Origin: Gammaproteobacteria bacterium
GTDB lineage: Bacteria; Pseudomonadota; Gammaproteobacteria; Eutrophobiales; Eutrophobiaceae
Direction: 5' to 3'
Length of the DNA: 64,000 nt
NCBI GenBank assembly: GCA_021773215.1
Contig: JAJFKM010000041.1
Location: forward strand, 1,099 to 65,098
Position 1 is the first letter of the stretch; every line of letters begins with the position of its first letter. The notes below the pieces were generated by a model that saw only the letters and a program-made list of their open reading frames with translations, was not told where the DNA came from and searched no databases. This document shows, piece after piece, positions 1 through 15,040 of the stretch. Both the position numbers and the translations under genes were made by a program.

Positions 1-100
1 AATCGATGATTAACCGTTGAACGAGATCTTTGATGATGTGGTAGGCGGGATTGTGAGAATCGACCTTTGATAGATCGTCAGCACTTTTAAATAACAACAT
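1..100 (-). CDS. hypothetical protein, N-terminal part only (gene continues past the window start)
   Basis: ATG at 98-100 on the minus strand is preceded by a strong AGGAGGT Shine-Dalgarno (reverse complement of 107-113) with 6-nt spacing. The frame stays open to the window edge (MLLFKSADDLSKVDSHNPAYHIIKDLVQRLIID...). It is too short to be in the ORF track because it is truncated. Confidence 0.35.
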   Translation of the reverse strand, partial: MLLFKSADDLSKVDSHNPAYHIIKDLVQRLIID

Positions 101-382
101 AGGTTTGTTACCTCCTAAAGAATGGACGATAAAAATCCGCAGTACATAAATGCACGGCAGGTTATTTGAGGTTGTATGTAATTAAGGGATTAAAATTAAG
201 GTGTGTATGTGTACTTCATATAAGGTACTTATTTTTGCGCAATTGATACCTTCGATAGATTAGTGTTTGGTCATTGATTAATTGAGGGGCTGCATTGCTT
301 AGTGGCCTGGATGGGGCAGCGGAAAAAGTGGGCGGTGAGAGGGGCGGATAATTCGATGGATTTGATCGGGATAGTTTTATAA

Positions 383-1375
383 GTGCTAGAAAAATGCATT
401 ACGTTTGGCGAGTTTTTAGCGCATCGCGCGCCGATGACGGGCTATTACCCGGATAGGGGGCTTTTCAACCAAGGCAAGTCCGGCCCGATCGTCGATCGGT
501 TACGGAAGGAACTGGCAATCCTGCCGGGAGATCGCTTCATGGGATCGGTTGCAACAGTATGGGGCGCGAAGGGGGGAGCGCTGCGGCAAGAGCTTTCATT
601 GCCCGCCAGTACCACGCTCGAACCTGGACAATTCGAGGAGTTCATCGCCTATGTCGGAAACAAGACCGGAAATGATCATGATCTGATCGATCTTTGGAGG
701 TTTAACATTCCGACCCTGTCCGAGTATGGGCAGAGTGTTTCGCGTCAGTACATGTTCTACATCCAGAATTTTCTTAGCGAGAGCGGTGACCCTACGGAAG
801 TCTCAATAGCTTTCCCCAGGAAGGCCAATGTGGGAGTAATGGCCGCCATGGGCGTGTGTTTTATCGTGATTGACCGCCCATTGTCAGATTCCCGAGTAAC
901 GCTAGCTCTAACAGAGCAGTTTGCCCACACAACCCTTTATCTCTACGAGATCGCAGACCCAATTCTAGGAAACTACAGTCCGGTGAGTTTTGAGTTGGAT
1001 CCCAACTTATCAAAATTTCGGGCCAGCGTAGAGGGAGACCCGGGTGTCCTAGCAAGAACGGCGTATGTGCAGGAGCTGGTGGAAGGTACGGTAGTCCCTG
1101 CCCGTGACGCACAGATGGCCTACGAGAAGGGAGGTGTACACGTGACTGCGTCGAACGAGGGCACGTCAGTACTTCTTCTACCCTTGCAATTTTCTCACTG
1201 CCTGAGCACCCGGGACCATGGGGTCAAGCTCAGTCGCGCCAATCTCATCTTCACCCAGATCAAGTTCCATGGTGTCCTAGACACGAAGATTGAATGGGAA
1301 TTCGACTTCTGGAGAGGTAGCGATTGTAGGGTTCAGGATGTCGGTGACATGCGGTTGTTGGGACTACTCAATTGA
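383..1375 (+). CDS. hypothetical soluble protein (330 aa) whose C-terminal ~110 aa are homologous to the C-terminal domain of the 717-aa membrane protein at 1846-3999
   Basis: Long ORF in the GC-rich block. By eye its tail (SVLLLPLQFSHCLSTR...RANLIFTQIKFHGVLDTKIE...DCRVQDVGD) aligns with the tail of the 717-aa protein (SLVVVPFAFSNCLRIV...RVNLLLTGILFEGSLDVLIE...DCLLKDVQD). No recognisable enzymatic motif. Confidence 0.55.
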   Translation: MLEKCITFGEFLAHRAPMTGYYPDRGLFNQGKSGPIVDRLRKELAILPGDRFMGSVATVWGAKGGALRQELSLPASTTLEPGQFEEFIAYVGNKTGNDHDLIDLWRFNIPTLSEYGQSVSRQYMFYIQNFLSESGDPTEVSIAFPRKANVGVMAAMGVCFIVIDRPLSDSRVTLALTEQFAHTTLYLYEIADPILGNYSPVSFELDPNLSKFRASVEGDPGVLARTAYVQELVEGTVVPARDAQMAYEKGGVHVTASNEGTSVLLLPLQFSHCLSTRDHGVKLSRANLIFTQIKFHGVLDTKIEWEFDFWRGSDCRVQDVGDMRLLGLLN

Positions 1376-1845
1376 TGTAACCCTAGCTACCAGATTGAAA
1401 AGGTTGACCTTTGGCCGAACAATGCCTCTCCTGGCGGTTTTTCATAATAACTTTCATGGTCCTTCTCCTAGTCTGCTGTACATCGCAAGCTCCTCTGTTG
1501 CACTCAGATGCCGGTTCAGATAAGGGCGACCATCCCAGTCACGGCCATAGATTGACCGGGCCATGGTGAAAACAAAGCTGTTATTGTTGACGTCACTATG
1601 CAGGCGTATGTTCTGTCTGTGATTGACGCAATAAATACTGCGAACGGTGGCAGCTTGAACTTGAACCATAGTTCTGTGTTGGATATATCCGGACAACCTA
1701 ATGGTGGTATTTATAAGTTTGAATGATTGAGCTTGGAAAGCGGTGACGTTTTTAGAGATTCGATGTTGTTTTCTTCGTATCATTGTAACTTCATACAATT
1801 TAACTTATCAGCACCTTTTATACACCTGTTTGACTTTATTCCAAT

Positions 1846-3999
1846 TTATGAAGCGTTTAGATCCTCAATGTCTTGCACGTCTTTCAGAAGACAATCAGTA
1901 TTACTAAACGGCGTTTGATGATGCTCGATCAACACATCAAGAGAGCCCTCAAACAAAATACCGGTCAACAATAGGTTTACTCGCTTCAACTCGGCCGACT
2001 CGGAACTACTCGACCCCACGATTCGCAAGCAATTGGAAAACGCGAAGGGAACCACGACCAAAGAATGCCCGCTGGTGTTGGCACGGACGCGGAAGCCACC
2101 ACGTTCCATAGTGATCGAAATGGCACGGGCGGGCATCAGCGGTTTCGTATGGTCGGTTCGCGATAGCATCGCCGTTTGCGCGAAATCAACCTCTTGCTCC
2201 CCGAGCCACGCGAGCGCGGTGTTTGACGAAGTGAAGGGTACCGTCTCCGTCGGCGATATGCCGAGATTGGTTTCTGAAATTACATCTAATGCGAGCGGTT
2301 CTTTTCCCTCCAATGTAATTTCTTGAACGCGTTCCGTCTCAGGCGTCGGGGGGCCATCGGTAATAATGTAGCGGACTCCGAGGAGGCGAAGGATCCGCAG
2401 GTTCGGCAGGCGCATATTGAGAATGTTGCGACTTTGGCCGTCGCCGGCCGGCGCTAGGTACTGTGTGGCGACACCCCACAGCTCAGGTGGAATGGTATGG
2501 CTGAATTCGATTAATGTGGGAATACCATAATACCAAAGGCCGATGGTGCGATGCTCATTACCGATGGCCCGCATGAGTTTCAAGTCCAGACCAAACATTT
2601 CGTTCCAGCCGGATTGAGCCGGCAGCCCTTGACCGGTCATAGTGACCACCCGACCACGGAAAGGCGAGCCGCGAAAGAGTCCTACTTCATCGCTCAAGAT
2701 GTTCGTCAGTATCGATGCTGTCGGCGGATAAATATTGGGTCGAGCATTGATGGTACGATGCAGATAGTTTGGACCATGTAGTGCTAGAAAGCCGGATAAT
2801 ACGATTGCAATTTCGGCACATAGACCTAGTGTCGGGCGTGGTAAAGACGTTTTTCTCAACAAGTACAAACCGGAGTATGTTACTACATCGAAGAGCAGCA
2901 GCATTGCGAATACGACATAGATCGGCCAAATGACCATTTCATAATACAGTGGAATTGCTACGGATTTGCCGTAAGTGGCATAATACCATGTGGCCGATAA
3001 GATGAGTCCGACCAATATTGTCGTGGCTAGCGCAAACTGTCGCCTCCGCTCGCTCCCGAATAGAATGCAGTAAATACTACCGGTCACACCCAAGGCGGCT
3101 ATTATCGACGAAATCGGCTCAAATGAATAGCGCAGTAGCAGTGACCCGTCGCTTGCCGGATGATTAGTGCGATATGCATTTTCTAGGAAAAAGTGGAAGT
3201 AGGTGTCGGACGACATGCCCAACATTGCCTCAGGTAACCCCGAAACGACCAAGAACACCAGAACACATCCTCCCCATAAGAACTTACTGAGAAGCTCAGC
3301 CCGATTACGTGCACCAATAAAAAAAACGACGCCGAACACGACAATAAAGGGAAGCGTCACCGCAAAGAAGAGCCCGAAGGCTGTTGCCAGCACCCATGTC
3401 AGAAAGCTGATTGCCCCTGCTCTTAGTGCGTCTCCTAAAAGTGGGCCGCGGCCGATGCCGGCCCAGAGTACAATTATGGCGAAGGCTGTCAGGTCCAAGC
3501 TGACCAGTATCGGAAAATCGCCAGTTACATTGTAGAACAGAGATGGAAAGCTGAGCGGTGAAATGACCAATACCGCAAACCATCCTGTGACCACCGCTCG
3601 ACCGGATTTGACACCCAACCAAAACGCGAGTAGCGACACACCGACGAACATTTCAACGGACGCGGTGGTGTGGATAGCTATCTTTTGCCAAGTCGGATCA
3701 GAAAAGAACTGCGCTACTGCCAGTTCTGGAATCCAGCGAGTGTTGGCAAAATACCAGAGATCGTTTAGACCTTGCAGGGGATTCGTAGAAAAACCTAGGC
3801 TTGGGGAAGCGAATTCCATTTGACTCCGGACAAGCGTCAATAGGTAGTGCCCGTCTATGTAGCTGAGTAAATTATCAACGTTGAGCCAAAACGTCGCACT
3901 GGTGAATATGGCGACTAAGAGCGTATGCACGGCCAGACGACTCGGCCAAGCTGCGTCTATTTGGCGGACGGTTGGGGAGTGGGGAGTTATATTGACCAT
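1846..3999 (-). CDS. large polytopic integral membrane protein (717 aa) with a C-terminal non-membrane domain; GT-C-like glycosyltransferase architecture is possible but unproven
   Basis: Long ORF with more than 10 hydrophobic helix-length segments over the first ~430 aa, then a ~280-aa hydrophilic C-terminal region. GC-rich relative to the rest of the window. It lies immediately downstream of the secreted-protein gene on the same strand, so the two may form an operon. Confidence 0.65.
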   Translation of the reverse strand: MVNITPHSPTVRQIDAAWPSRLAVHTLLVAIFTSATFWLNVDNLLSYIDGHYLLTLVRSQMEFASPSLGFSTNPLQGLNDLWYFANTRWIPELAVAQFFSDPTWQKIAIHTTASVEMFVGVSLLAFWLGVKSGRAVVTGWFAVLVISPLSFPSLFYNVTGDFPILVSLDLTAFAIIVLWAGIGRGPLLGDALRAGAISFLTWVLATAFGLFFAVTLPFIVVFGVVFFIGARNRAELLSKFLWGGCVLVFLVVSGLPEAMLGMSSDTYFHFFLENAYRTNHPASDGSLLLRYSFEPISSIIAALGVTGSIYCILFGSERRRQFALATTILVGLILSATWYYATYGKSVAIPLYYEMVIWPIYVVFAMLLLFDVVTYSGLYLLRKTSLPRPTLGLCAEIAIVLSGFLALHGPNYLHRTINARPNIYPPTASILTNILSDEVGLFRGSPFRGRVVTMTGQGLPAQSGWNEMFGLDLKLMRAIGNEHRTIGLWYYGIPTLIEFSHTIPPELWGVATQYLAPAGDGQSRNILNMRLPNLRILRLLGVRYIITDGPPTPETERVQEITLEGKEPLALDVISETNLGISPTETVPFTSSNTALAWLGEQEVDFAQTAMLSRTDHTKPLMPARAISITMERGGFRVRANTSGHSLVVVPFAFSNCLRIVGSSSSESAELKRVNLLLTGILFEGSLDVLIEHHQTPFSNTDCLLKDVQDIEDLNAS

Positions 4000-4293
4000 A
4001 TTGAGTGACGTAAGTTTTTAAAGTTGTTAAGCGCCTAGTTTAACAAAGCTGCTGTTGCGTGTTTTAGCGTTCATAAAGAGGCGAGGAAATTTCCATAATC
4101 CATAACGAAGGGAGTTGTTTGGAGCTTCCTCTCAGCTGAGTCCAAAGTGCAATAAGAATTTTTGTTACTCACCGTTGATAACTCGCACTTAAATTGTAAC
4201 TTTTTCTATATTCACAATTTCTGAGAAACCGGAACTCGATCCTTACTAGCAATTTTATAAAGGCTGGAATTCGATAACGAGTTCCAGAGTCTG

Positions 4294-5196
4294 TTACGAC
4301 TGTAGTGGAGAAAGGTACAGTGTTCCGGATTGCATTGTCGCACAGCCGCCCTGTCCCCCGTTGGACATAAACAACGACACACGGACATAGCCCTCCTCAG
4401 CCCCTTTCGCACCGATTGCCACTGTATGAATGGTGCTGACATCATTGGGACTGCCTTGATAATGAATCGCTGTGTGACTGAATGGGACCCCGTCTATACC
4501 GACCATGACATGCACATAACCTCTGGGCTTGTCGCTTTTAACTGTTCCGGAGACATAGGCATTTGGAACCGTGAAAGCCTGTCGAAATGTGTCATTTATA
4601 CCAAAGGTCAGAAATTCCAGAAAAAAGCCTGAAATCTCCGTCATCGTGTCCGAGCATGTTCTCGCAATCGGCGCGCCGAGCGTCGGGCCAATGAAGGCTG
4701 CGAGCCCAGTATGCCCTCGATTGGCCCACGAGATCGTCATCTGTCGATTGACTTCACCTCTGATCATTCCATTCTCGTCGGTCCGAGCCATACCAACAAG
4801 GGAGAGTGTGGGATCGTCTACGTGAACCTCATTTCCGTAGGTTTCATCCTCCTTGTGGCCACCGGTACTGAAGCTCATCTTCATCACCTTGTCATCCATG
4901 AAAACGAACGTGCGGTAGAGCGTCAGCGGCGCAAGTATTTGACCGCATACTTTTTCAATGCAGGCATTTTTCACTTCACCAATCACCCCCCCAGAAATGA
5001 CTCCTACACCCGGCGGTATTGTTTCTGATTGCCCAGCTATAACGATCTGGTTACCATTTTTCGGAACGAAATGAACCCGACTGAAGGGAGAACCTGAATC
5101 GGCCAAGGGAAGAAATTGCCCCTCATTGCCAGCCCAGGCGAGTTGATTAATCGATATTATGAAAATTAAACCTAAACCTAGAAAAATATGATTCAT
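4294..5196 (-). CDS. secreted or periplasmic hypothetical protein (300 aa) with an N-terminal signal peptide
   Basis: N-terminus MNHIFLGLGLIFIISINQLAWA- is a typical Sec signal peptide with an AxA cleavage motif. Long ORF in the GC-rich block. No recognised domain. Confidence 0.55.
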   Translation of the reverse strand: MNHIFLGLGLIFIISINQLAWAGNEGQFLPLADSGSPFSRVHFVPKNGNQIVIAGQSETIPPGVGVISGGVIGEVKNACIEKVCGQILAPLTLYRTFVFMDDKVMKMSFSTGGHKEDETYGNEVHVDDPTLSLVGMARTDENGMIRGEVNRQMTISWANRGHTGLAAFIGPTLGAPIARTCSDTMTEISGFFLEFLTFGINDTFRQAFTVPNAYVSGTVKSDKPRGYVHVMVGIDGVPFSHTAIHYQGSPNDVSTIHTVAIGAKGAEEGYVRVSLFMSNGGQGGCATMQSGTLYLSPLQS

Positions 5197-5746
5197 ACTG
5201 AACTCGTAAATGGGGTGCTCAATTTGGCTACTATAATATATTTAATCCAGCTAGGCACTCATACATTAATTTGCCAATAATTTTGCAATTATATAATCGA
5301 AAATTATTATGGATAGTTCTATAAAAATAATCAAGTAAGTCGTATCATAATTATTAAGTCTGAATTTATAGATATCCGCTTTGAGTCTCCTCCAATTAGC
5401 TGACAAAAAACATTATCTTTCAAATCAAGAAAATCAGTGTAAATATAGAAAGCAAAAGTAGAATAATCAGTAAGACAACGGATTAACCTACATACACTCA
5501 AGCTATACCGAATACAATTTCGCGACAGTTAAATTTAATGAACGCGAGAGACATTAGGGTTTAAAACCCCAGAAGAAAAGATTAAGGAATGTGTTGCATA
5601 TACAGATTGAATTAGCAGTACAATGCAGACATAAAATGAAATTATATAAAGTGAGTATGACTATATATTGCTATTTCTTATGTATTAAATAAATAACATA
5701 TGATGATGTTTTCTAAATCATATGGAAGATATTATCTGAAATTAAT

Positions 5747-5778
5747 TTGAATAAGAATTTGAAGGTTTTGTATATAAT
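5747..5778 (+). promoter_or_regulatory. candidate sigma70 promoter for the AT-rich sugar-modification operon
   Basis: TTGAAT (5747-5752), an 18-nt spacer, then TATATAAT (5771-5778), about 55 nt upstream of the 5832 start. The background is extremely AT-rich, so a chance match is likely. Confidence 0.2.
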
Positions 5779-5831
5779 GATTGAATCGATATTAATTAAA
5801 CAATGGATAATTTAGAAAAATTAATACTAGG

Positions 5832-6776
5832 ATGAATAAAAATGCCATCATAGTAGGCAGTTCTGGGCAAGATGGGAGGTTGCTCTCAAGTCTTTTAGTT
5901 TCTCGTGGATACAAAGTTACTAAGATTTCACGCGAATCTATTATTACTGGTGATATCCAATCCGATCCTATTGATATTGGAGACCTGAAACAGGTTAATG
6001 ATCTTGTCAAAAAAATAAAACCACAGGAAATATATTTCCTAGCTGCTTTTCATCATTCGTCCGAAGATGATCTTTGCAATGAAGCTTTTTTATTACAAGA
6101 AAGCAATAGAGTGCACTTCATAGCTGCAACAGCGTTCCTAGAGGCCATACGAACATTTTCACCTAAAAGTAGGTTTTTTTATGCAGCTTCATCACATGTT
6201 TTCGGAGAACCAACCACACTCATTCAAGATGAAAAAACACCACTAAATCCTGATAGCGTATATGGAATAACTAAAACCGCGGGTTTGCTCTCCTGCAGAT
6301 ATTATCGAGAAACACATGGTGTCTTTGCAGCAGTAGGTATTATGTATAATCATGAATCATCTTTACGTGATGTACGATTTGTATCAAAAAAGATAGCTAC
6401 TGGAGTAGCGCTTATTAAAAGTGGTGTTAAAGAAAATATTGTTTTGGGTGATCTTGATGCCGCAGTTGATTGGGGTTGTGCGTCTGATTTTGTTGAAGCC
6501 ATGACACGAATAATGGACCTAGATATATCTGAGGATTTTGTCATAGCTACAGGGGAACGTCATACTGTAAGAGAGTTTGTTGATATTGCTTTTAGTTACG
6601 CTAATCTAAATTATAAACTATATATAAAACCTGCACATTCAATCATTAAACGTTCAGCTAAGAACCTTGTCGGAAATCCAGGCCGTCTAAAAAAAATAAC
6701 AGGCTGGAAACCAAAGGTAAGCTTTGATGAAATGGTACACCGTATGGTACAAGCTGAAATGGATGCATTATTATGA
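5832..6776 (+). CDS. NAD(P)-dependent sugar-nucleotide epimerase/dehydratase of the extended SDR family, GDP-mannose 4,6-dehydratase/Rmd-like
   Basis: N-terminal Rossmann motif AIIVGSSGQDGRLLSSLL resembles the GMD/Rmd GxxGQDG signature. Catalytic YxxxK is present (YGITK). AGGA Shine-Dalgarno 4 nt upstream. The stop overlaps the next gene's start in ATGA. Confidence 0.75.
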   Translation: MNKNAIIVGSSGQDGRLLSSLLVSRGYKVTKISRESIITGDIQSDPIDIGDLKQVNDLVKKIKPQEIYFLAAFHHSSEDDLCNEAFLLQESNRVHFIAATAFLEAIRTFSPKSRFFYAASSHVFGEPTTLIQDEKTPLNPDSVYGITKTAGLLSCRYYRETHGVFAAVGIMYNHESSLRDVRFVSKKIATGVALIKSGVKENIVLGDLDAAVDWGCASDFVEAMTRIMDLDISEDFVIATGERHTVREFVDIAFSYANLNYKLYIKPAHSIIKRSAKNLVGNPGRLKKITGWKPKVSFDEMVHRMVQAEMDALL

Positions 6777-8209
6777 GCAACGAACTTCTTATCTTTATTC
6801 CAACGTACAACGAAAGAGAAAATGTTGAAAGTATTATTATGGATATCATGGGACTTAGCTTGTCTGCCGATATCCTCTTCATTGACGACAGTTCGCCAGA
6901 TGGCACTGGTGATCTGCTAGAAGAATTTGCTTGTAAGTATGAAAATGTGATTGTACAACATCGAGCAGGAAAGCTTGGCGTCGGAAGTGCACACAAACAA
7001 GGGATTAAGTGGGCTTATGATAATGGATACAAGCTTTTGATTACAATGGACTGCGATTTTACGCATTCACCTAAAAAGATTATAGATTTTTTAAAGAAGT
7101 CTGATGATGCGGATGTGGTTGTTGGTTCACGTTATATGGATACGAATAGTCTTGTTGGGTGGAATCTGTTCCGTAAATTGCTAACTAATCTTGGGCATTC
7201 ACTAACTAAGTTTTTCCTAAAAATGCCTTACGATGCAACAGGTGGTTTTCGTCTTTACCGGCTTGATAGTATTTCATCTGTTTTTCTCAACTCAATATAT
7301 TCATCCAGTTATTCATTCTTTTTTGAGAGTCTTTATGTGTTACACCTCAATAACTTTAGAATTGTAGAAATATCTACTGTGCTTCCAGCACGAGTATATG
7401 GTCACTCAAAAATGCGCATCATTGATGCATGGTATAGTCTTATGCATCTAGTAGATATCTATTTTACAACTTTGCTTAATCGTGAGCGCTTCGAATTTGT
7501 GGAGCCCTTCAACTCGACAACAAAAAATCTTAAAGAGGATAAGGACTGGAACAATTATTGGTCCGGAAAGGATAAGCCAACACATCTTGTTTACGATCTT
7601 ATTGCTGCATTTTATAGAAGGTTTATCATTCGGCCGTCACTTAATCATTTTATCAGAAAGTATTTTGACCGGGATTCACAAGTTATGCATGCTGGATGCG
7701 GTAGTGGACAGGTAGATATTGGTATCGCAGATTACATCAAGATATCGGCGATCGATATTTCGGTTCAAGCACTTAGCATATACAAGAAAACAAACAAACA
7801 TCATCAGGAACTAATACATGGCTCTATTTTTTCTATCCCTGTGGAGAATGATTTTTATGATGGTATATACAATCTCGGAGTAATGGAGCACTTTCCCGAA
7901 GATGAAATTGTGAAAATACTATCAGAATTTCATCGCGTGTTAAAACCTGATGGCAAGTGTGTTCTGTTTTGGCCACCTGAATTTGGACTAAGTGTCATTT
8001 TCCTCAAATTTGTTCATTTTATTCTCAATCGGGTACTCAAAAAAGATATTTTGCTTCATCCAGCAGAAATAACTCGAGTTACATCAAAAGCTCAAGTTGC
8101 AGACTTTCTGAGTAAGACTGGGTTTTCATTGGTCGAATACAGTTTTGGTATTCGTGATTTTTTTACCTATGTGGTGGTCATAGGACAAAAGACTACTCAG
8201 AGGACCTAA
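6773..8209 (+). CDS. bifunctional family-2 glycosyltransferase (DPM1-like, N-terminal) fused to a class I SAM-dependent methyltransferase (C-terminal)
   Basis: N-terminus IFIPTYNERENV...LFIDDSSPDGT...TMDCDF carries the GT2 DxD/DxS-type motifs. C-terminus HAGCGSGQVDIG...GVMEHFPEDE...LKPDGKCVLFWPP carries methyltransferase motifs I-III. ATGA overlap with the upstream gene. Confidence 0.75.
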   Translation: MSNELLIFIPTYNERENVESIIMDIMGLSLSADILFIDDSSPDGTGDLLEEFACKYENVIVQHRAGKLGVGSAHKQGIKWAYDNGYKLLITMDCDFTHSPKKIIDFLKKSDDADVVVGSRYMDTNSLVGWNLFRKLLTNLGHSLTKFFLKMPYDATGGFRLYRLDSISSVFLNSIYSSSYSFFFESLYVLHLNNFRIVEISTVLPARVYGHSKMRIIDAWYSLMHLVDIYFTTLLNRERFEFVEPFNSTTKNLKEDKDWNNYWSGKDKPTHLVYDLIAAFYRRFIIRPSLNHFIRKYFDRDSQVMHAGCGSGQVDIGIADYIKISAIDISVQALSIYKKTNKHHQELIHGSIFSIPVENDFYDGIYNLGVMEHFPEDEIVKILSEFHRVLKPDGKCVLFWPPEFGLSVIFLKFVHFILNRVLKKDILLHPAEITRVTSKAQVADFLSKTGFSLVEYSFGIRDFFTYVVVIGQKTTQRT

Positions 8210-8210
8210 G

Positions 8211-9113
8211 ATGGTTGTTCAAGAAACTGAACTAGTAGATTTCCCTTGTCCGATCTGTGAAAACGTTGACTATGATGTTATCCATCCCGATACACTAGAT
8301 AATTGCTTACCAGAGTTTGGTTATGATTTTAACAGCAGACATTCGGATCACTATAGAATAATAAGGTGTCAAAGTTGTAGTCATGGGTATTGCTCACCTA
8401 GACCAGCTGATTTATATCGAAGCTATATTGATGTCGAGGATTCAGAGTATTTAAAGAATACAACACAAAGGTTAGAGACGGCGAGTTTAGTAATTGAGAC
8501 TATTAGAAAAATTAAGTTGTCTGGTAGGTTGTTGGACATCGGCCCCGCTACCGGTGACTTCCTTAGTATAGCAAAGAAATACTATGATTCAGATGGCTTA
8601 GAACTATCAAAATGGGCTGCGAATATTGCAGTAAAGAAAGGACACACAATCCATTCCTGCCGATTATCTGAACTCGTAACTAATACCGACTATGATATTA
8701 TCACTATGTGGGGGGTGATAGAACATTTCGAGTTCCCGAAAGATGAGATTATTGAAATTAAAAGGATACTTGCTGCAGATGGGATAGTTTGTTTTTGGAC
8801 AGGGGACATAGATTCCTGGTTGGCTCGGTTGCTCGGTTCAAAGTGGTGGTATATCCAAGGACAACATATACAGTACTTCAGTCAAAGGTCACTGGACAAG
8901 CTATTTGATGAGCAAGGTTTTAAACGCATATATACCGCACGTTATCCGTATGTGATGAGCTTGGAGTCTATGGCAAAATCACTTGGTCGTTATCCATTCA
9001 TTGGACCGTTAGCTAATGCAATTTTTTCTAATAGTCTATTTGGGAAATGGACTATTACATTTCGACTTCCAGGAGAACTTTTCGCAATTTACCAAAAGCA
9101 AGTAAATCAATAA
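8211..9113 (+). CDS. SAM-dependent methyltransferase with an N-terminal Cys4 zinc ribbon (sugar O- or C-methyltransferase family)
   Basis: CPIC...CQSC zinc ribbon, then LDIGPATGDF (motif I), ITMWGVIEHFEFP and LAADGIVCFW. Starts 2 nt after the upstream stop, so it is the third gene of the operon. Confidence 0.7.
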   Translation: MVVQETELVDFPCPICENVDYDVIHPDTLDNCLPEFGYDFNSRHSDHYRIIRCQSCSHGYCSPRPADLYRSYIDVEDSEYLKNTTQRLETASLVIETIRKIKLSGRLLDIGPATGDFLSIAKKYYDSDGLELSKWAANIAVKKGHTIHSCRLSELVTNTDYDIITMWGVIEHFEFPKDEIIEIKRILAADGIVCFWTGDIDSWLARLLGSKWWYIQGQHIQYFSQRSLDKLFDEQGFKRIYTARYPYVMSLESMAKSLGRYPFIGPLANAIFSNSLFGKWTITFRLPGELFAIYQKQVNQ

Positions 9114-9373
9114 AAGCTTTACCGCGTATAAAGTATTTTGATGTTCAAATAATCGCGAATCTGAATCAGGCAGTATGTTCGAGGAAGAGAATCGATCGAT
9201 ATTAAATTTCATGTTTATCTTGGTTCCATATCTTTGTTGCAGGAATCAAATATATAGCTATATGATGAGCTTGCGAACTGATTTATCGGAAGACAAATTA
9301 CTTGTAAGAAATACAGATGAGTTGTTATGGCTCTTTTCAGTTATAAAAGTAGTTAATCTCTCATTCTAAAGTT

Positions 9374-10303
9374 TTATGCGACTGCTATGAATTTCATCAC
9401 GCCTGATTTTCCTAAAAAGAAAGGTGCTATATTGAATGGTATCATGGCAAGCAATAATAGTTCGAACCCATGCATTCTTCCAAATTTCAACTTCGGATTG
9501 TTACGTAGATCAGCAATGTTCCTTTGAAGATAATTCTGGATAGATGCGGCAATTGTTCCTGTATTTAACTCACTGGTGATAAATACCTCTTTGAACCCAG
9601 CATTTAATAGCAGGGTTGTTAATTGTTTTTTATCATATTGAAATGTATGACGAGGGACATGATTGCCACCCCAATATCGACCAAAAAGTTTACGGTCTAC
9701 AGATCCAAAATTTGGTGTTTCACCTACTAGTATTCCACCAGAGCGAATGAGTTCTCGCGCTTTCTGAAGCTCAGCTATAGGATTCAGCATATGCTCAATA
9801 TAGTTGTTCATGAACACAGCATCGTACGATGACGGTTCATCTTGAAAATCAACAAAAAGACCTTGGAATACATTTATTCTTTTATTTTTGGCTAGATTTA
9901 CAGCTTTTTCACTGAAATCAATTCCTTGAAGAGTTTCAGCGCCTATTTCTTTAAGTCGTAATAAAAACTCTCCATTTCCACAACCAACGTCCAGGACTTT
10001 AGCACCTCTTTTAATATATTTTTGTAATTTTCGACGTAAGCCAAAATTGGCAAGGAAGAAAAGTATGTCGTATAACATCCTCCTTGCTCGGGCCTCTGGG
10101 ACATGAGAGCTATAATTTTCTGGGTACGCAATCATTAATTCTTCAATAGTTGGAAAAGGATGTAACTGAACTTGTCGACATCTTAGGCATTTGCGATATT
10201 CATATTCACCGCCAATACCAAACTCCCAATCTCTTATTTGCGACGTTTCAGTGAGGTATGAAGAATTACTACACAATCGACATTTATAATTTATAATATT
10301 CAA
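9374..10303 (-). CDS. SAM-dependent methyltransferase with an N-terminal Cys4 zinc ribbon (paralogous architecture to 8211-9113)
   Basis: CRLC...CLRC zinc ribbon, then VLDVGCGNGEF (motif I), AVFMNNYIEHMLNP and IRSGGILVGETP. Confidence 0.7.
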   Translation of the reverse strand: MNIINYKCRLCSNSSYLTETSQIRDWEFGIGGEYEYRKCLRCRQVQLHPFPTIEELMIAYPENYSSHVPEARARRMLYDILFFLANFGLRRKLQKYIKRGAKVLDVGCGNGEFLLRLKEIGAETLQGIDFSEKAVNLAKNKRINVFQGLFVDFQDEPSSYDAVFMNNYIEHMLNPIAELQKARELIRSGGILVGETPNFGSVDRKLFGRYWGGNHVPRHTFQYDKKQLTTLLLNAGFKEVFITSELNTGTIAASIQNYLQRNIADLRNNPKLKFGRMHGFELLLLAMIPFNIAPFFLGKSGVMKFIAVA

Positions 10304-10323
10304 TTATTTACCGAATCCCATGA

Positions 10324-11169
10324 TTAGTCCTTTACTTGCCAAGGAAGATTATGGAACCAATCGTTTAGATATGTAAGGTGATTGCCCGTACAAATTTCTA
10401 TTGATAGATTTCCTTTTGTATGTGGTTTATGTGCAAGCATTCTCTCTCGAACTATTTGGAGATTTTCAAAAGGCACCATTGGATAAAAATGATGCTCTGC
10501 ATGATGACGAAATCCCATGTTGCCGAAAAAACATGCTAATAACCCATTATCTAGAAACGTCCGTAATACGAATTTTCCAATAACGGGATCACCATGCTCA
10601 GCTAGCCCTCGCAATTTCGCTAAGCCTTGAACTAAAGTTATTAACGGTAATAACCAGAAAAATAGATAGTACATAGGGCCCATAGAAAGGCTAAAAATAA
10701 TCATGATTATGATTTGCACAAAAATTAAAGAAATAGTGTCAGATGACCTCGATGATTTCAACGTTGACGATTTATTTCCCCAGAAAATTTGATTGATTGC
10801 AGCTAAGCCAGAAAAACTAAAAATTATAAAAATCAAAAAATCTATTTTTGATTTCGGCGGGGACTTATATATTGGTAAATCTGGGTCTAGATTGGGAACT
10901 CCAAAATGTTTATGGTGTTGCAGGTGTTCGTCTCGAAATGACTTCGTCAAACCAATAGGATATGCTACAAAACATGCGACTAAGTTTGCGGTTTTGCTTC
11001 TGGTTCGAAAATCCTGATGACTAGCCTCATGTGCCGCATGCAATAAATGGTATTGAAGTATGCCAACTGATAGAAAAACTAACGACGCTATAATATATTC
11101 ATAAAATGGAGCAGTATTTAATGTCACTGTATACAATAAAAAAATAATACAGTAATAACTCCACCCCAT
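10324..11169 (-). CDS. membrane fatty-acid desaturase / sterol-desaturase family di-iron protein
   Basis: Three histidine boxes are present (HAAHEASH, HLQHHKH, HHAEHH) with several hydrophobic segments. It lies 20 nt upstream of the 9374-10303 methyltransferase on the same strand. Confidence 0.65.
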   Translation of the reverse strand: MGWSYYCIIFLLYTVTLNTAPFYEYIIASLVFLSVGILQYHLLHAAHEASHQDFRTRSKTANLVACFVAYPIGLTKSFRDEHLQHHKHFGVPNLDPDLPIYKSPPKSKIDFLIFIIFSFSGLAAINQIFWGNKSSTLKSSRSSDTISLIFVQIIIMIIFSLSMGPMYYLFFWLLPLITLVQGLAKLRGLAEHGDPVIGKFVLRTFLDNGLLACFFGNMGFRHHAEHHFYPMVPFENLQIVRERMLAHKPHTKGNLSIEICTGNHLTYLNDWFHNLPWQVKD

Positions 11170-11475
11170 ATTAAAGCTACATTAATAAAAAAACGTTTTG
11201 TCCTTTTATGGCAAAATGCTATCTCAGTTTTTGTAAGAAAATTTTTATTTATGTTCAATTATATTTCATCCAAGTCTGCTTAGAGACCAACAATTTTTAA
11301 TTGTTTTTTCAAAGTTTATTTATTAAAAAGAAAATATCTATGGATGTGATTTGTTAGATAGTCTTAACTTGAACGTTAAGTGAGTAAAATCTATAATAAA
11401 GGGTTATAATTAATGTCAATATTTTAAGTATCGTTTTTTATTTAACTATAGTAATACTCGTTTGGAGGTTACAAA

Positions 11476-12735
11476 TTGCATCTCGGTTATAGAAAAACCT
11501 GTCGTGTGTGTGGATCAAGTGCTTTAACAAAAGTAATTGATCTTGGTGAACAATATTTGCAAGGATCTTTTGTCAAACCTGGTAAGGAACTTCCATCTAT
11601 GCGTAAAATTCCATTAACGCTTGTGAGATGTGATCCTACCAAAGATGAAATTGCTTGTGGTTTGCTGCAGATGGAACACACGGTTCCGGCAGAAGTGCTT
11701 TATTCAAATTACTGGTACCGTTCTGGTACTAATAACACAATGAGACAGCATCTCAAGGGGCTTGCGGAAGAAGCTAGCTCAATTTTTAATCATCCCAAAG
11801 CAAAGGTGCTTGATATTGGTTGTAATGATGGAACATTGTTGAAATGTTATCCAAATAATTTTGAAAAATATGGTGTTGATCCTTCTGATATTGCTCAAGA
11901 AATAAATGAACAATTTACTATAATACAAGATATTTTTCCTTCACAGGAACTTGAGACTAAGTTGGGGAAAAATAAAATCGATATAATAACTTCGATTGCA
12001 ATGTTCTATGATCTTGAAGACCCAATTGGTTTTACAAAAGGAATTAAGAACTACTTATCTTTAAATGGTATTTGGATATTTGAAATGTCATATATGCCTG
12101 CCATGCTTAAAATGAATTCTTATGACACTATCTGCCATGAACATCTCGAATATTACAGTCTGGCTGTAATTGAATTTATTCTTAGCCGTGCTGGGATGAA
12201 AATTTTTAATGTGAACCAGAATTCAATCAATGGTGGAAGTATTCGTTGTTATGCTACGCATATCAATAATAATTGCTATAAAAAACCTCAGTTTGAAAGT
12301 AATCTGAGAATGATGCGCAACGATGAATTTGATCTTAGTCTGGATTTAGACTTGCCATACAAAGATTTTCAGGAATCTGCGAATTTAAATAAAAAAGAGC
12401 TTTTGTCGTTGCTTATTAAGTTAAAAAATGACGGTAAGTCTATCCATATTTATGGTGCATCCACAAAAGGAAATACTATCTTACAATGGTGCGGTATTGA
12501 TTTTCGGCTTATTGAAGCCGCCTCTGAGCGTAATCCCGATAAATATGGTGCGAAAACTCTTGGAACTGACATACCTATTATTAGTGAGGCGGAATCGAGA
12601 GCTATGAATCCTGATTACTATCTTGTTTTGCCATGGCATTTTAAAGAAGAGTTTATAGAGCGTGAAAAAGTATCTTTAGATAAAGGTGTTGGATTTATCT
12701 TTCCATTGCCTAATGTAGAAATAATAAAGAAATAG
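11476..12735 (+). CDS. NDP-hexose C-methyltransferase-like protein (TylCIII/TcaB9-like: zinc-binding N-terminus, methyltransferase domain, C-methyltransferase C-terminal domain)
   Basis: TTG start with a GGAGG Shine-Dalgarno 5 nt upstream. CRVCGSS near the N-terminus, VLDIGCNDGTL (motif I), ~419 aa length, and the C-terminal region typical of the sugar 3-C-methyltransferase family. Confidence 0.65.
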   Translation: MHLGYRKTCRVCGSSALTKVIDLGEQYLQGSFVKPGKELPSMRKIPLTLVRCDPTKDEIACGLLQMEHTVPAEVLYSNYWYRSGTNNTMRQHLKGLAEEASSIFNHPKAKVLDIGCNDGTLLKCYPNNFEKYGVDPSDIAQEINEQFTIIQDIFPSQELETKLGKNKIDIITSIAMFYDLEDPIGFTKGIKNYLSLNGIWIFEMSYMPAMLKMNSYDTICHEHLEYYSLAVIEFILSRAGMKIFNVNQNSINGGSIRCYATHINNNCYKKPQFESNLRMMRNDEFDLSLDLDLPYKDFQESANLNKKELLSLLIKLKNDGKSIHIYGASTKGNTILQWCGIDFRLIEAASERNPDKYGAKTLGTDIPIISEAESRAMNPDYYLVLPWHFKEEFIEREKVSLDKGVGFIFPLPNVEIIKK

Positions 12736-12990
12736 ATATTATAGATTAATCTCTGATAATCAATATTATATAGTTGATTTATTAGTACTTTAAAGGTTGA
12801 GCTAGGTTTTAACTTAAACAACATGGGCTTTATATATATGTAAATATTGCCCAACACATCAAATATATTTTTCTTTAAATCTTTCATTTATTCTGCGATT
12901 AGACGTATGTACCCCGTCAGCACCATGTGGACCAAATAGTCTAATTGTCTAAGAGATAGTTTTAGTTCATCGTTAACCCAAGAGGAAACG

Positions 12991-13353
12991 ATGATGACAA
13001 GTAAAAGAAGTGTAGAACATACTGTGCGCGATATTCGTCGACGCACCCGTAAAAAATATTCAGCAGAAGAAAAAATACGTATCGTGCTTGAAGGCTTGCG
13101 TGGCGAAGAAAGCATCGCTGAGCTATGCCGCAAAGAAGGACTAAACCCAAATGTTTACTACCGTTGGTCGAAAGACTTTCTGGAGGCAGGTAAGAAACGT
13201 TTATCAGGCGATATCGTACGTGAAGCGACCTCGGATGAAGTGAAAGAATTGCGTACTGAAACGTCTGCGCTGAAAGAAACACTGGGCGAAGTAGTGATGG
13301 AGAATCGTCTGCTTAAAAAAAGCGTGCTCGGGGATGGGGAGGACGATATATGA
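12991..13353 (+). mobile_element. IS3-family transposase OrfA (helix-turn-helix) remnant; the A7 programmed-frameshift site is retained but orfB is deleted
   Basis: Protein MMTSKRSVEHTVRDIRRRTRKKYSAEEKIRIV...YYRWSKDF is typical of IS3/IS911 OrfA. The slippery heptamer TTAAAAAAAG sits at 13313-13322, with A7 at 13315-13321. No transposase catalytic ORF follows. Confidence 0.7.
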
Positions 13354-13372
13354 GGTACTTAGCATCGGATAA

Positions 13373-13689
13373 AGTCGAGATTATTCAACTGGTACAGAGC
13401 TCATGATGGAAAATGGCATCATGTAGCAGCTACACTTGATCTTATGAAGTCTGAAGCTGAGTTTTATTTTGATGGGATTAGAATGAATCTAGATATTGCT
13501 AAATATTCAAGGGGCAAACTTGAAACCTTAAGTAATAATATATTTTTGGGCGCAAACAATAGAGGCAATATACCGAGTAAGTCTACTGGTAAAACTATAA
13601 CTAATTTTTTCAAAGGTTCTATCGATAAAATTAGAATTTATAATAGAAAATTAAATTCTCGGGAGATTCATCATTTAAGCCGATCTTAA
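13373..13689 (+). pseudogene. LamG (concanavalin-A-like lectin/glucanase) domain fragment, internally frameshifted
   Basis: ...DGKWHHVAATLDLL then a stop, and in the -1 frame ...EAEFYFDGIRMN...FKGSIDKIRIYNRKLNSREI. These match the LamG strand pattern (W.HVA.T.D...YVDG...FKG.IDEVRIYNRALS..EI). There is no N-terminal part and no start context. Confidence 0.5.
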
Positions 13690-13960
13690 CTATTTCTTTT
13701 TCCGATGCATTTTTTCCACTTTATCCATTCGTTTAACATAAGTTGAAACGTCACCTTTATAGTATGTCATGACCTGCTGTACGGTTTTATGTACGGTTTT
13801 ATGTACGGTTATCTTAATCAGTCCCAGAATATTGAATTCTTTAGAAAGACGAGAACAGGCTTCATGCCTTAAGTTGTGAAAGTGGAAGTCTTTAATGTTG
13901 GAAAATAGGAAACTAAATTCTGATAGCGAAATATATTTTAAATCGAGAGTTTTCTTTGCA
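13690..13960 (-). pseudogene. tyrosine recombinase (phage-type integrase) C-terminal fragment
   Basis: Minus-strand translation gives ...LSEFSFLFSNIKDFHFHNLRHEACSRL..., i.e. the box II HxLRH motif region, and runs to a stop at 13690-13692. The N-terminal two-thirds are absent. It contains a 12-nt tandem repeat at 13779-13810. It sits 136 bp from the att-like tRNA-Asn repeat. Confidence 0.5.
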
Positions 13961-14095
13961 GTAGCAGCTTACTTATTCTATATCGCTATACATTATATAT
14001 ACGGTTATTTAGAAACAGCGGAAAGTATTCTGAAACTTATTCTGAAATAAGAAAAACCCACTACTTAAAGTGGGGTAAATCGTTGATTTAATTGA

Positions 14096-14134
14096 CTCCC
14101 CGGGACAGGCTCGAACTGCCGACCTAGTGATTAA
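14096..14134 (-). repeat. 39-bp perfect direct repeat of the 3' half of tRNA-Asn (att-like island boundary)
   Basis: CTCCCCGGGACAGGCTCGAACTGCCGACCTAGTGATTAA at 14096-14134 is identical to 14901-14939 inside the intact tRNA-Asn gene, in the same orientation. Confidence 0.85.
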
Positions 14135-14206
14135 TGTCGTATTTAATTATAATTTAGTATTTAAACCATAAAGCTGAGTTAATTTGAATGTCAGAGGCAT
14201 TTATAT

Positions 14207-14743
14207 ATGAATCATAAGTTTTCAGATAATAAAAAACATGCTTCAAGAGCTATAATTGATGCATTAATATTGTTTAGTGACAAACAGTTTTATGAATACT
14301 TAATAAATGAAGGTGGTGATAACTCTATTGAAGAAAAATGGTTTGATTGGTTTATAAAAGAATGGCGTGTAGCAAGAACTATAAATAGCAATAAAAAATC
14401 AGAATTTTTATATTATATTCACTCGGGTGACTTTAATTCATTAATAGATAAAGATTTTGAAACATCTGTAGATTTTGTTGCGAATACAATGAAGAAAAAT
14501 AAATGGTCAGCTTATAATGAAGATAAAAAATATTATGTGAAGCCAACTTCATTGGTTTCAAAAATTGGGTTTATCTTATTTCCAGAAATCATAATTCCTG
14601 TAGATAGGTATTCCAAATTAGGACTTAATAAAGTAAAAGGAACTAAAAAGGATGATGGGGAAGGATATTTAAAAGAGAATAGCTATGCAGAATATATTAA
14701 AGAGTTTAATAGAAAAAGAATGGGTTGCTGCAATTTCAGATGA
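14207..14743 (+). CDS. hypothetical protein (178 aa) encoded on the att-flanked mini-island
   Basis: Only long ORF between the two att copies. Very AT-rich and Lys/Asn-rich, with no recognised motif. A 49-aa ORF in another frame (14685-14834) overlaps its 3' end. Confidence 0.45.
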   Translation: MNHKFSDNKKHASRAIIDALILFSDKQFYEYLINEGGDNSIEEKWFDWFIKEWRVARTINSNKKSEFLYYIHSGDFNSLIDKDFETSVDFVANTMKKNKWSAYNEDKKYYVKPTSLVSKIGFILFPEIIIPVDRYSKLGLNKVKGTKKDDGEGYLKENSYAEYIKEFNRKRMGCCNFR

Positions 14744-14897
14744 ATTTGACATCAAAAAAACATTATTAAAAACCAAGAAGTTTCGCAGAAAGGTATACGA
14801 TAATTACCTAATGCATATTGGCGGAAGATATTGAGCCTCGATATCGCCATATCAAATAAAAAAAGCCCACATAAACATGCAGGCTTTTCATTTGATA

Positions 14898-14973
14898 TGG
14901 CTCCCCGGGACAGGCTCGAACTGCCGACCTAGTGATTAACAGTCACCCGCTCTACCGACTGAGCTACCGGGGA
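14898..14973 (-). tRNA. tRNA-Asn (anticodon GTT)
   Basis: Reverse complement folds as a cloverleaf: acceptor TCCCCGG/CCGGGGA, D arm GCTCAGTCGGTAGAGC, anticodon arm GGTGA-CTGTTAA-TCACT with anticodon GTT, T arm GGCAGTTCGAGCCTGTC, and CCA encoded. Confidence 0.9.
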
Positions 14974-15040
14974 ATATTCGAGAACGCGTATACTACTGAT
15001 GGTGCCAGACAGGGTCAATACTCTATTGTAGTTAATTGCT

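Follow-up and report, generated by a model that had tools for sequence, protein, structure and literature searches.

What does a short GC-rich block beside a low-GC gene island encode, and do the two work together? The question is raised by the left end of a 64,000-nucleotide stretch of contig JAJFKM010000041.1 (assembly GCA_021773215.1, from a Gammaproteobacteria bacterium of the family Eutrophobiaceae), hereafter called the window. Three open reading frames (ORFs) are present in the block as a preliminary description of this DNA had reported them: one encodes a 717-residue membrane protein (p717, or A), one a 300-residue signal-peptide protein (p300) and one a 330-residue protein (p330) that resembles the C-terminal part of p717. 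In that description p330 was seen as a free-standing, soluble copy of a domain or as a decoy, and the block as a second, independent acquisition. We consider it probable that the block is instead the GT-C glycosyltransferase cassette of a three-component extracytoplasmic glycosylation locus, and that p330 is the non-functional remnant of a second GT-C gene, named B here.

Fold and family of the 717-residue membrane protein

The AlphaFold2 (AF2) model of p717, built on the alignment of its family, displays about 11 transmembrane helices and a beta-rich C-terminal domain of 300 residues, with a pLDDT (predicted local distance difference test) of 88 and a pTM (predicted template modelling score) of 0.89. 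When this model was compared with the PDB using Foldseek, the matches at ranks 1 to 11 were all GT-C enzymes, with E values from 1.8e-6 to 2e-2 and template modelling (TM) scores of about 0.3-0.43, the top ones being AftD (E = 1.8e-6), AftA, STT3 (OST-A and OST-B), DPY19, ALG12 and AftB. This agrees with the preliminary description, which had guessed a GT-C-type enzyme for the 717-residue protein.

Conserved residues point in the same direction. D49-G50 is invariant in 32 homologues and N73-PLQG is nearly so; in the AF2 model D49 starts the helix that follows the first transmembrane helix (residues 18-39) and belongs to the first outward loop. As the catalytic acidic residue of GT-C enzymes is located in the segment after this first helix (PMC11127046), we infer that Asp49, which matches the usual position, is a candidate catalytic residue of p717. 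Read from the charge pattern, the tentative orientation puts the five clusters of Lys and Arg (130-134, 183, 231-239, 317-321 and 381-389) on one side of the membrane and, on the opposite side, the D49 loop (EL1, the first outward one), the loop 254-294 and also the C-terminal domain. Within the C-terminal domain, C657 and C703 are invariant in the same 32 homologues.

Sequence searches place p717 in a family of its own. No Pfam match was obtained at E <= 1 and no meaningful one in NCBIfam, and a profile of 32 family sequences searched against all PDB sequences returned no match at E <= 10; judged by its sequence, p717 lies outside every named GT-C family checked in these three collections. 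Among 5.8 billion proteins, a word-indexed search brought up 35 relatives, each of them labelled hypothetical and lacking a Pfam domain, and nearly all from metagenomes or metagenome-assembled genomes (MAGs). When 1.84 billion cluster representatives were searched exhaustively with a profile, 1,709 of them reached E <= 1e-3 and 847 reached E <= 1e-30, most being 700-800 amino acids (aa) long. Among species-representative genomes the family occurs in MAGs of Alphaproteobacteria (Xanthobacteraceae, Bradyrhizobium, Pseudolabrys), Burkholderiales, Desulfovibrionaceae and Nitrospirales. It is a genuine family, if an uncommon and unnamed one. Together, the predicted fold, the conserved residues and the gene neighbourhood described below support p717 as a GT-C-fold enzyme.

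The 330-codon reading frame and its B-type relatives

Using BLASTP with compositional adjustment, p330 aligns with p717 at E = 1e-24, far below 0.01, with 29% identity over 238 aa (p330 96-323 against p717 480-711), the alignment including the SHC/SNC and DC..DV motifs. With tblastn the similarity widens to p330 36-323. Thus the resemblance noted earlier is real, but it covers nearly the whole ORF and not the last ~110 residues only. The closest relatives of p330 are found elsewhere, in loci carrying relatives of the block proteins (labelled L001 to L031), where they form the C-terminal thirds of membrane proteins of the B type, 767-1344 aa at full length and 52-66% identical to p330. Residues 8-330 of p330 are 58% identical to residues 442-764 of the 767-aa B protein of L028; identity is 52% with the last 324 residues of the 1344-aa B protein of L022 and 66% with the available part of that of L026. 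B proteins possess a polytopic N-terminal module of their own, and their first loop ('D..NPxQG') aligns marginally with the D49/NPxQG region of p717 (E = 0.044). Since p330 is only 29% identical to p717, the duplication is ancient and did not take place in the genome of the window; by sequence comparison the A/B split is old and p330 is a B-type fragment.

The homology to B does not stop where p330 does. When the B protein of L022 is aligned with the window (tblastn), the alignment passes the TAA stop codon directly upstream of p330 and continues to position 335. In an alignment with eight B-type sequences, the last transmembrane helix of full-length B proteins reads 'LPFILPAAITACSLIGAWGYG' and the window reads 'MDLIGIVL*VLEKCITFG' at that place; hence a stop codon and charged residues now stand in the degenerate remnant where the last helix of B belongs. 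The similarity upstream of the TAA is weak on its own, and it coincides with a step in GC content at ~300. Furthermore, p330 carries Cys in place of the Arg of the GVR[YF] motif, which is invariant in all 40 aligned sequences (32 A-type and 8 B-type), and in three more columns that show no other variation it has changed as well (W>R, N>I and P>T). Over 274 columns p330 has 10 unique deviations and the other eight sequences have 0-9, a count that is suggestive of relaxed selection. Most likely, p330 is the non-functional remnant of a recent 5' truncation at the left junction of the block, that is, a probable pseudogene remnant. The 5' ~440-1000 codons of B, corresponding to the whole membrane catalytic module, would have been lost at this recombination or deletion junction, leaving p330.

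Other matches limited to the C-terminal domain (L013 and L017-L021) were considered as free-standing domains, and this was rejected for the two that were inspected: the family member in L018 is divergent but full-length (938 aa), and the gene in L021 is full-length but frameshifted. In L022, the B paralog (3930-7964) has an extra, apparently cytoplasmic N-terminal region of ~580 residues before its membrane module; this region has no Pfam match and a very weak NCBIfam match to the TIGR04372 family glycosyltransferase (E = 0.014).

Secreted partner, gene neighbourhoods and composition

The third protein of the block, p300, begins with a hydrophobic helix ending AWA|G, in keeping with the signal peptide proposed earlier. 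Searches of Pfam, NCBIfam and PDB sequences gave nothing usable for it, nor for A, B or p330, and none of the 34 homologues of p300 has a Pfam domain; the earlier remark that none of the three proteins shows a recognised motif holds for these collections. Its AF2 model (pLDDT 89) is all-beta, the signal helix being followed by two beta-sandwich domains, and its Foldseek matches, of moderate quality, include TNF-like lectins (the N-terminal domain of BC2L-C, PLTL), Pgp3, Cry toxin domains and accessory domains of glycoside hydrolases. A p300 homologue adjoins an A-type gene in five of the six informative contexts. As in the window, it stands directly upstream of the A orthologue, with both genes on one strand, in L026/L027, L028 and L030; in L029 it is convergent with a distant member of the p717 family. 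By its predicted structure, p300 would be a periplasmic or secreted jelly-roll partner, possibly a carbohydrate-binding one. The exception is L031, from a Rhodoplanes MAG, where the p300 homologue (1038-1970) lies near lptC, lptA, lptB and rpoN with no GT-C gene alongside; this contig ends ~1 kb upstream of the homologue.

The genes surrounding the p717 family recur from locus to locus. They comprise a 234-257-aa GT2 glycosyltransferase, an LPG_synthase_TM protein, Gmd-like short-chain dehydrogenases/reductases (SDRs) and a Methyltransf_13/14 C-methyltransferase, and further a DegT aminotransferase, a NUDIX protein, several S-adenosylmethionine (SAM) dependent methyltransferases and PhyH or FA_desaturase oxygenases. 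GT2 and LPG_synthase_TM genes adjoin family members in L001, L022, L026, L028, L029 and L030, and the GT2 gene alone does so in L024. B genes share loci with the closest A orthologues (L022, L026, L028 and L030). The distance between them is variable and they are adjacent or near-adjacent in two of the loci: the order is B, p300 homologue, A in L028 and B, A in L022, while in L026 and L030 it is p300 homologue, A, several genes, B. In L018 a small membrane ORF resembling ArnE/F lies upstream of the GT-C gene. IS66 genes or fragments (TnpB_IS66, DDE_Tnp_IS66) and a resolvase were seen beside GT-C clusters in L001 (16378-18993), L026 (3920-4096) and L030 (4841-5524), which is consistent with mobile GT-C loci.

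Regarding composition, positions 1-5000 of the window have a GC content of 47-53% in 1-kb windows, positions 5001-15000 of 32-39%, and the remainder ~40%. Per gene, p330, p717 and p300 have GC contents of 0.53, 0.51 and 0.50 and values at third codon positions (GC3) of 0.60, 0.56 and 0.51. By comparison, 39 core ORFs beyond 15 kb average 0.408±0.024 for GC and 0.344±0.042 for GC3, which places the block genes 4-6 standard deviations above them, and the neighbouring island genes show 0.27-0.39 and 0.20-0.34. In 100-bp windows the shift is sharp on both sides, at ~300 on the left (GC 0.36, 0.48 and 0.59 across 201-500) and at ~5200 on the right. The block is thus compositionally foreign to both the core genes and the adjacent island, as had been noticed by eye. 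The loci of relatives mostly have 54-65% GC, so a higher-GC donor fits; the best relative locus shares only 64-66% nucleotide identity with the block.

A difference in composition is also seen among the relatives. In L026 (672-3833 and 12047-13831), L028 (4180-9811) and L030 (7001-10281) the A, B and p300 genes have GC3 values of 0.58-0.63, against 0.65-0.80 for most of their neighbours, whereas the offset in the window is in the opposite direction (0.51-0.60 against 0.20-0.34). The loci L022 and L024 are uniform at ~0.5-0.7, and the distant version of the cluster in L029, from a genome of 37% GC, is uniformly low in GC. This pattern fits, and suggests from base composition, a cassette of GT-C and partner genes that was exchanged separately from the donor-sugar genes.

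The low-GC island next to the block contains counterparts of several of these recurring neighbours (Table 1). Its Gmd-like SDR is 32-39% identical to SDRs adjoining GT-C genes in L021, L022, L024, L028 and L030 (the NCBIfam gmd model scores 203 bits, below its cutoff of 415). For the GT2 domain, identity with the GT2 of L021, where the order of a Gmd-like gene followed by GT2 is the same, amounts to 53%; in NCBIfam this domain scores best with AglJ, PpgS, ArnC and dolichyl-P-hexose transferase, none of which reaches its cutoff, and the domain is a candidate for making the lipid-linked sugar donor. The clearest counterpart is the C-methyltransferase, 40-43% identical over its full length to those adjoining GT-C genes in L001, L021, L022, L024, L026 and L030. 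The other counterparts, the Gmd-like SDR and GT2 included, are more distant, as are the second free-standing methyltransferase (29% identity with methyltransferases in L022, L028 and L030) and the FA_desaturase-like protein (26% with the FA_desaturase gene of the L029 cluster, 13849-14814). The GT2 and methyltransferase domains fused in the window are separate genes in relatives, and the best NCBIfam match of the FA_desaturase-like protein is the GntB arginine hydroxylase, below cutoff. Between 1 and 16000, only p717 and the FA_desaturase-like ORF carry two or more transmembrane segments.

Table 1. Coordinates of the features in and around the GC-rich block
Feature	Position	Strand	Assignment and basis
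B-gene degenerate remnant	287-382	+	in frame with p330; TAA stop at 380-382
p330, 330 aa	383-1375	+	probable 3'-terminal fragment of B-type GT-C gene (C-terminal periplasmic-type domain only)
p717 (A), 717 aa	1846-3999	-	predicted GT-C-fold integral membrane glycosyltransferase, unclassified family
p300, 300 aa	4294-5196	-	predicted signal-peptide protein with two beta-sandwich (jelly-roll, TNF-like/lectin-like) domains
Gmd-like extended SDR	5832-6776	+	nucleoside diphosphate (NDP)-sugar 4,6-dehydratase/epimerase class; Pfam GDP_Man_Dehyd 2e-65
GT2-SAM methyltransferase fusion	6773-8209	+	Pfam Glycos_transf_2 1.5e-20 and Methyltransf_11/25
SAM-dependent methyltransferase	8211-9113	+	Methyltransf_23
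SAM-dependent methyltransferase	9374-10303	-	Methyltransf_23/31/25
FA_desaturase-family membrane di-iron hydroxylase/desaturase	10324-11169	-	Pfam FA_desaturase 2e-27; four hydrophobic segments
NDP-hexose C-methyltransferase	11476-12735	+	Methyltransf_13 zinc domain and Methyltransf_14
IS3-type transposase OrfA-like ORF	12991-13353	+	HTH_Tnp_1, 3e-14; mobile-element remnant at the distal end of the island
Partial second tRNA-Asn copy, 3' half	14093-14134	-	42 nt, 98%; att-like direct repeat of 14898-14939
tRNA-Asn(GTT)	14898-14973	-	boundary between island and core genes (aminotransferase, uvrB, thrS)

At its distal end the island is bordered by mobile-element and tRNA sequences. No transposase ORF of 40 aa or more follows the OrfA-like ORF; an unannotated 81-aa ORF (13444-13689, + strand) comes after it, in the debris between the C-methyltransferase gene and the tRNA repeat. 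The tRNA-Asn repeats flank a segment of ~760 bp with a 178-aa ORF (14207-14743, 27% GC) that has no Pfam or NCBIfam match, and they resemble the att sites of an integrated element that is small or decayed, the larger island beginning distal to it. The window shows no integrase gene, and a search of the left end of the island for a third tRNA-Asn repeat came back negative. On that side, the 5' end of a minus-strand gene occupies 1-101 (AGGAGG-like site, ATG at ~101, reading 'MLLFKSADDLSKVD...') and leaves the window at its left edge; it forms the left flank of the island and is followed by an AT-rich, non-coding segment at 102-290.

The intergenic regions 1-382, 1376-1845, 4000-4293, 5197-5831 and 12736-14206 gave no match to any of the fetched relative loci using tblastx and blastn, and scans for promoters and terminators gave nothing above background level. 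All nine window proteins that were checked, UvrB, ThrS and PheT included, are single members of their 90%-identity clusters and occur on one contig of 67,185 bp, eight of them identical to the translations made here; hence the host belongs to a poorly sampled lineage.

A putative glycosylation pathway and its alternatives

Several known systems follow a three-component scheme in which a GT2 enzyme loads a sugar on polyprenyl phosphate, the product is flipped and a GT-C enzyme passes the sugar on to an acceptor in the periplasm. Examples are Gtr (GtrA/GtrB/GtrC), Arn (ArnC/ArnEF/ArnT), CsbB/GtcA/YfhO and the PPPRS/MATE/GT136 ORF12 system of C. youngae (PMC11127046; PMC7389260; PMC8035078). According to the genes found here, the locus apparently follows the same logic of a cytoplasmic GT2, a flippase and a GT-C at the outer face. 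The Gmd-like dehydratase, the C-methyltransferase, the two methyltransferases and the FA_desaturase-like hydroxylase of the island would build a modified nucleotide sugar in the cytoplasm, a 6-deoxyhexose derivative that is probably C- and O-methylated. The GT2 domain of the fusion protein would then move this sugar onto polyprenyl phosphate. A flippase, presumably the LPG_synthase_TM protein in relatives, would bring the lipid-linked sugar to the periplasmic side; the window encodes no candidate for it, and one could be supplied in trans. Finally, p717 would hand the sugar on, by means of the invariant Asp49, to an acceptor in the periplasm, and its C-terminal domain would hold the acceptor glycan, in the way in which C-terminal domains resembling carbohydrate-binding modules hold the acceptor in AftD, EmbC and GT136 ORF12 (Kelly et al. 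2024, PMC11127046). In this scheme p300 may itself be the acceptor, or else a lectin-like subunit with an accessory role. The case for a lipid-phosphate-linked donor is indirect: GT2 genes of apparent polyprenyl-phosphate type stand beside the family both in the window and in seven or more other loci. Given that the island encodes counterparts of the usual neighbours of the p717 family, block and island appear to be parts of a single pathway. Thus, of the second, independent acquisition that had been proposed for the block, the compositional part stands, while independence from the island is not supported.

Compared with the known systems, p717 is similar to GT136 ORF12 by architecture alone, with its ~11 transmembrane helices, an Asp after the first of them and a beta-rich C-terminal domain, which in the GT136 system binds the acceptor glycan (PMC11127046). 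Unlike the enzymes of the three-component systems, it has no detectable sequence similarity to GT-C proteins of Pfam, NCBIfam or the PDB; moreover, its family often comes as two diverged GT-C paralogs with a conserved secreted beta-sandwich partner, and the donor sugar pathway here includes a C-methyltransferase. The candidate flippase of the relatives, an LPG_synthase_TM protein, also differs from GtrA, SMR or MATE flippases, and the window itself has no flippase gene. In gtr clusters, too, the acceptor-specific GT-C gene tends to differ in composition from its partners. The best structural matches of p717 are the mycobacterial AftD (6wby) and AftA (8if8), at E values of 1.8e-6 and 1.7e-4 with a Foldseek probability of 1.00, which are GT-C enzymes with polyprenyl-phosphate sugar donors and extracytoplasmic carbohydrate-binding domains. 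However, identity with p717 is ~12% and the TM-score ~0.42, the domain composition is different (AftD has 1250+ residues), and the host of the window has a low-GC genome of Gram-negative type, with no arabinan pathway genes.

Other explanations of the same genes have to be weighed. It seems unlikely, though arguable by analogy, that p300 is the substrate and that A (and B) are protein glycosyltransferases decorating the exported protein encoded immediately upstream. The frequent position of p300 homologues next to A-type genes, directly upstream and on the same strand in four contexts, and the predicted signal peptide would fit such a role. In Pseudomonas aeruginosa strains that belong to group IV, pilA directly precedes tfpW in the same manner. 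TfpW is a precedent for a GT-C enzyme modifying a protein with a polyprenyl-phosphate-derived sugar (bioRxiv 10.1101/2020.04.19.049825). The likeness to TfpW/PilA is one of gene arrangement, p300 not being a pilin; p300 also has no repetitive or Ser/Thr/Pro-rich segment of the kind usual in bacterial proteins that are heavily glycosylated, its homologue in L031 has no GT-C gene downstream although that contig ends ~1 kb upstream of it, and its lectin-like fold matches fit glycan binding at least equally well. There is very little probability, in our view, that p330 is a functional stand-alone protein, be it a cytoplasmic or otherwise exported acceptor-binding domain, a regulator or the decoy suggested previously. 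Its frame is open for 330 codons, it keeps most of the residues invariant in the superfamily (N, H, W, P, T, G, D, P, S, both Cys and R), and NCBI annotates it as a 313-aa protein (P0043) starting at M18. Against this, wherever a relative has enough sequence to judge by, it is the C-terminal end of a protein of at least 767 aa, and there is no stand-alone precedent among the five short relatives in the databases: L025 is open to the start of its contig and the other four begin with a residue other than Met, three of these having a recorded contig, each of 1-2 kb. Furthermore, the domain is predicted to be periplasmic, with a conserved pair of Cys, yet p330 has no signal peptide and no transmembrane segment, neither of its two candidate starts is preceded by a Shine-Dalgarno-like sequence, and the homology to B beyond the stop codon and the loss of the invariant Arg described above are at odds with an intact gene.

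It is also quite improbable that the block is unrelated cargo, a chance neighbour of the sugar island, with the donor of p717 made elsewhere or the locus inactive. The large compositional break at ~5200 and the missing flippase gene would agree with this, and the truncated gene and the insertion sequence remnant point to decay. Nevertheless, the same gene families flank A, B and p300 in at least seven independent loci, and the degree of identity of the C-methyltransferase to those of the relatives makes chance juxtaposition unlikely. In L026, L028 and L030 the GC3 of A, B and p300 also deviates from that of most partners inside clusters that are intact, so that a compositional mismatch does not imply functional independence. 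We keep to the reading of the block as a GT-C cassette with a probably dead B gene, against which several points must be set. There is no sequence link from p717 to a characterised GT-C enzyme in the collections searched, so its assignment as a putative GT-C enzyme rests on predicted structure with TM-scores of only ~0.4. The polyprenyl-phosphate glycosyltransferase matches of the island GT2 are below the curated cutoffs of NCBIfam. The two halves of the locus differ by ~0.25-0.3 in GC3 and their juxtaposition could be secondary. As for p330, its 10 unique substitutions barely exceed the 9 of the most divergent full-length homologue, and with a fully open frame annotated as a protein a residual function is possible. 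Lastly, the window contains no flippase candidate, no LPG_synthase_TM homologue and neither DegT nor NUDIX genes; together with the truncated B gene and the IS3 OrfA remnant, this means that the locus may be incomplete or decaying.

A bolder proposal, which we hold as doubtful, goes further than the GT-C cassette reading. A, B and p300 would constitute a horizontally exchanged 'specificity cassette' of a GT-C family with no current home in Pfam or CAZy, in which the two paralogs and p300 work as one unit, p300 being an obligate periplasmic subunit or the glycoprotein target, and which is swapped between hosts independently of the donor genes. Such swapping would explain why the GC3 of the cassette stays near 0.5-0.6 while that of its neighbours ranges from ~0.25 to ~0.8.

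Three-component glycosylation is already known; what is new here is an unclassified GT-C family, its conserved secreted partner and the frequent presence of two GT-C paralogs. Proof of activity for p717 would probably make it the founder of a new GT-C family in CAZy, in the way that ORF12 founded GT136. The locus is a compact example of a GT-C family that is recognisable only by its fold, accompanied by an exported partner and a donor pathway probably making a C-methylated deoxyhexose. It also presents a trap for annotation, in which an intact 330-codon ORF is called a protein by the pipeline while it is in all likelihood the tail of a truncated membrane enzyme. Finally, with a GC-rich GT-C cassette set in a low-GC donor-sugar island, the mosaic composition would clearly exemplify how the acceptor-specific step is exchanged as a module in the decoration of surface glycans, which drives antigenic and phage-receptor diversity.

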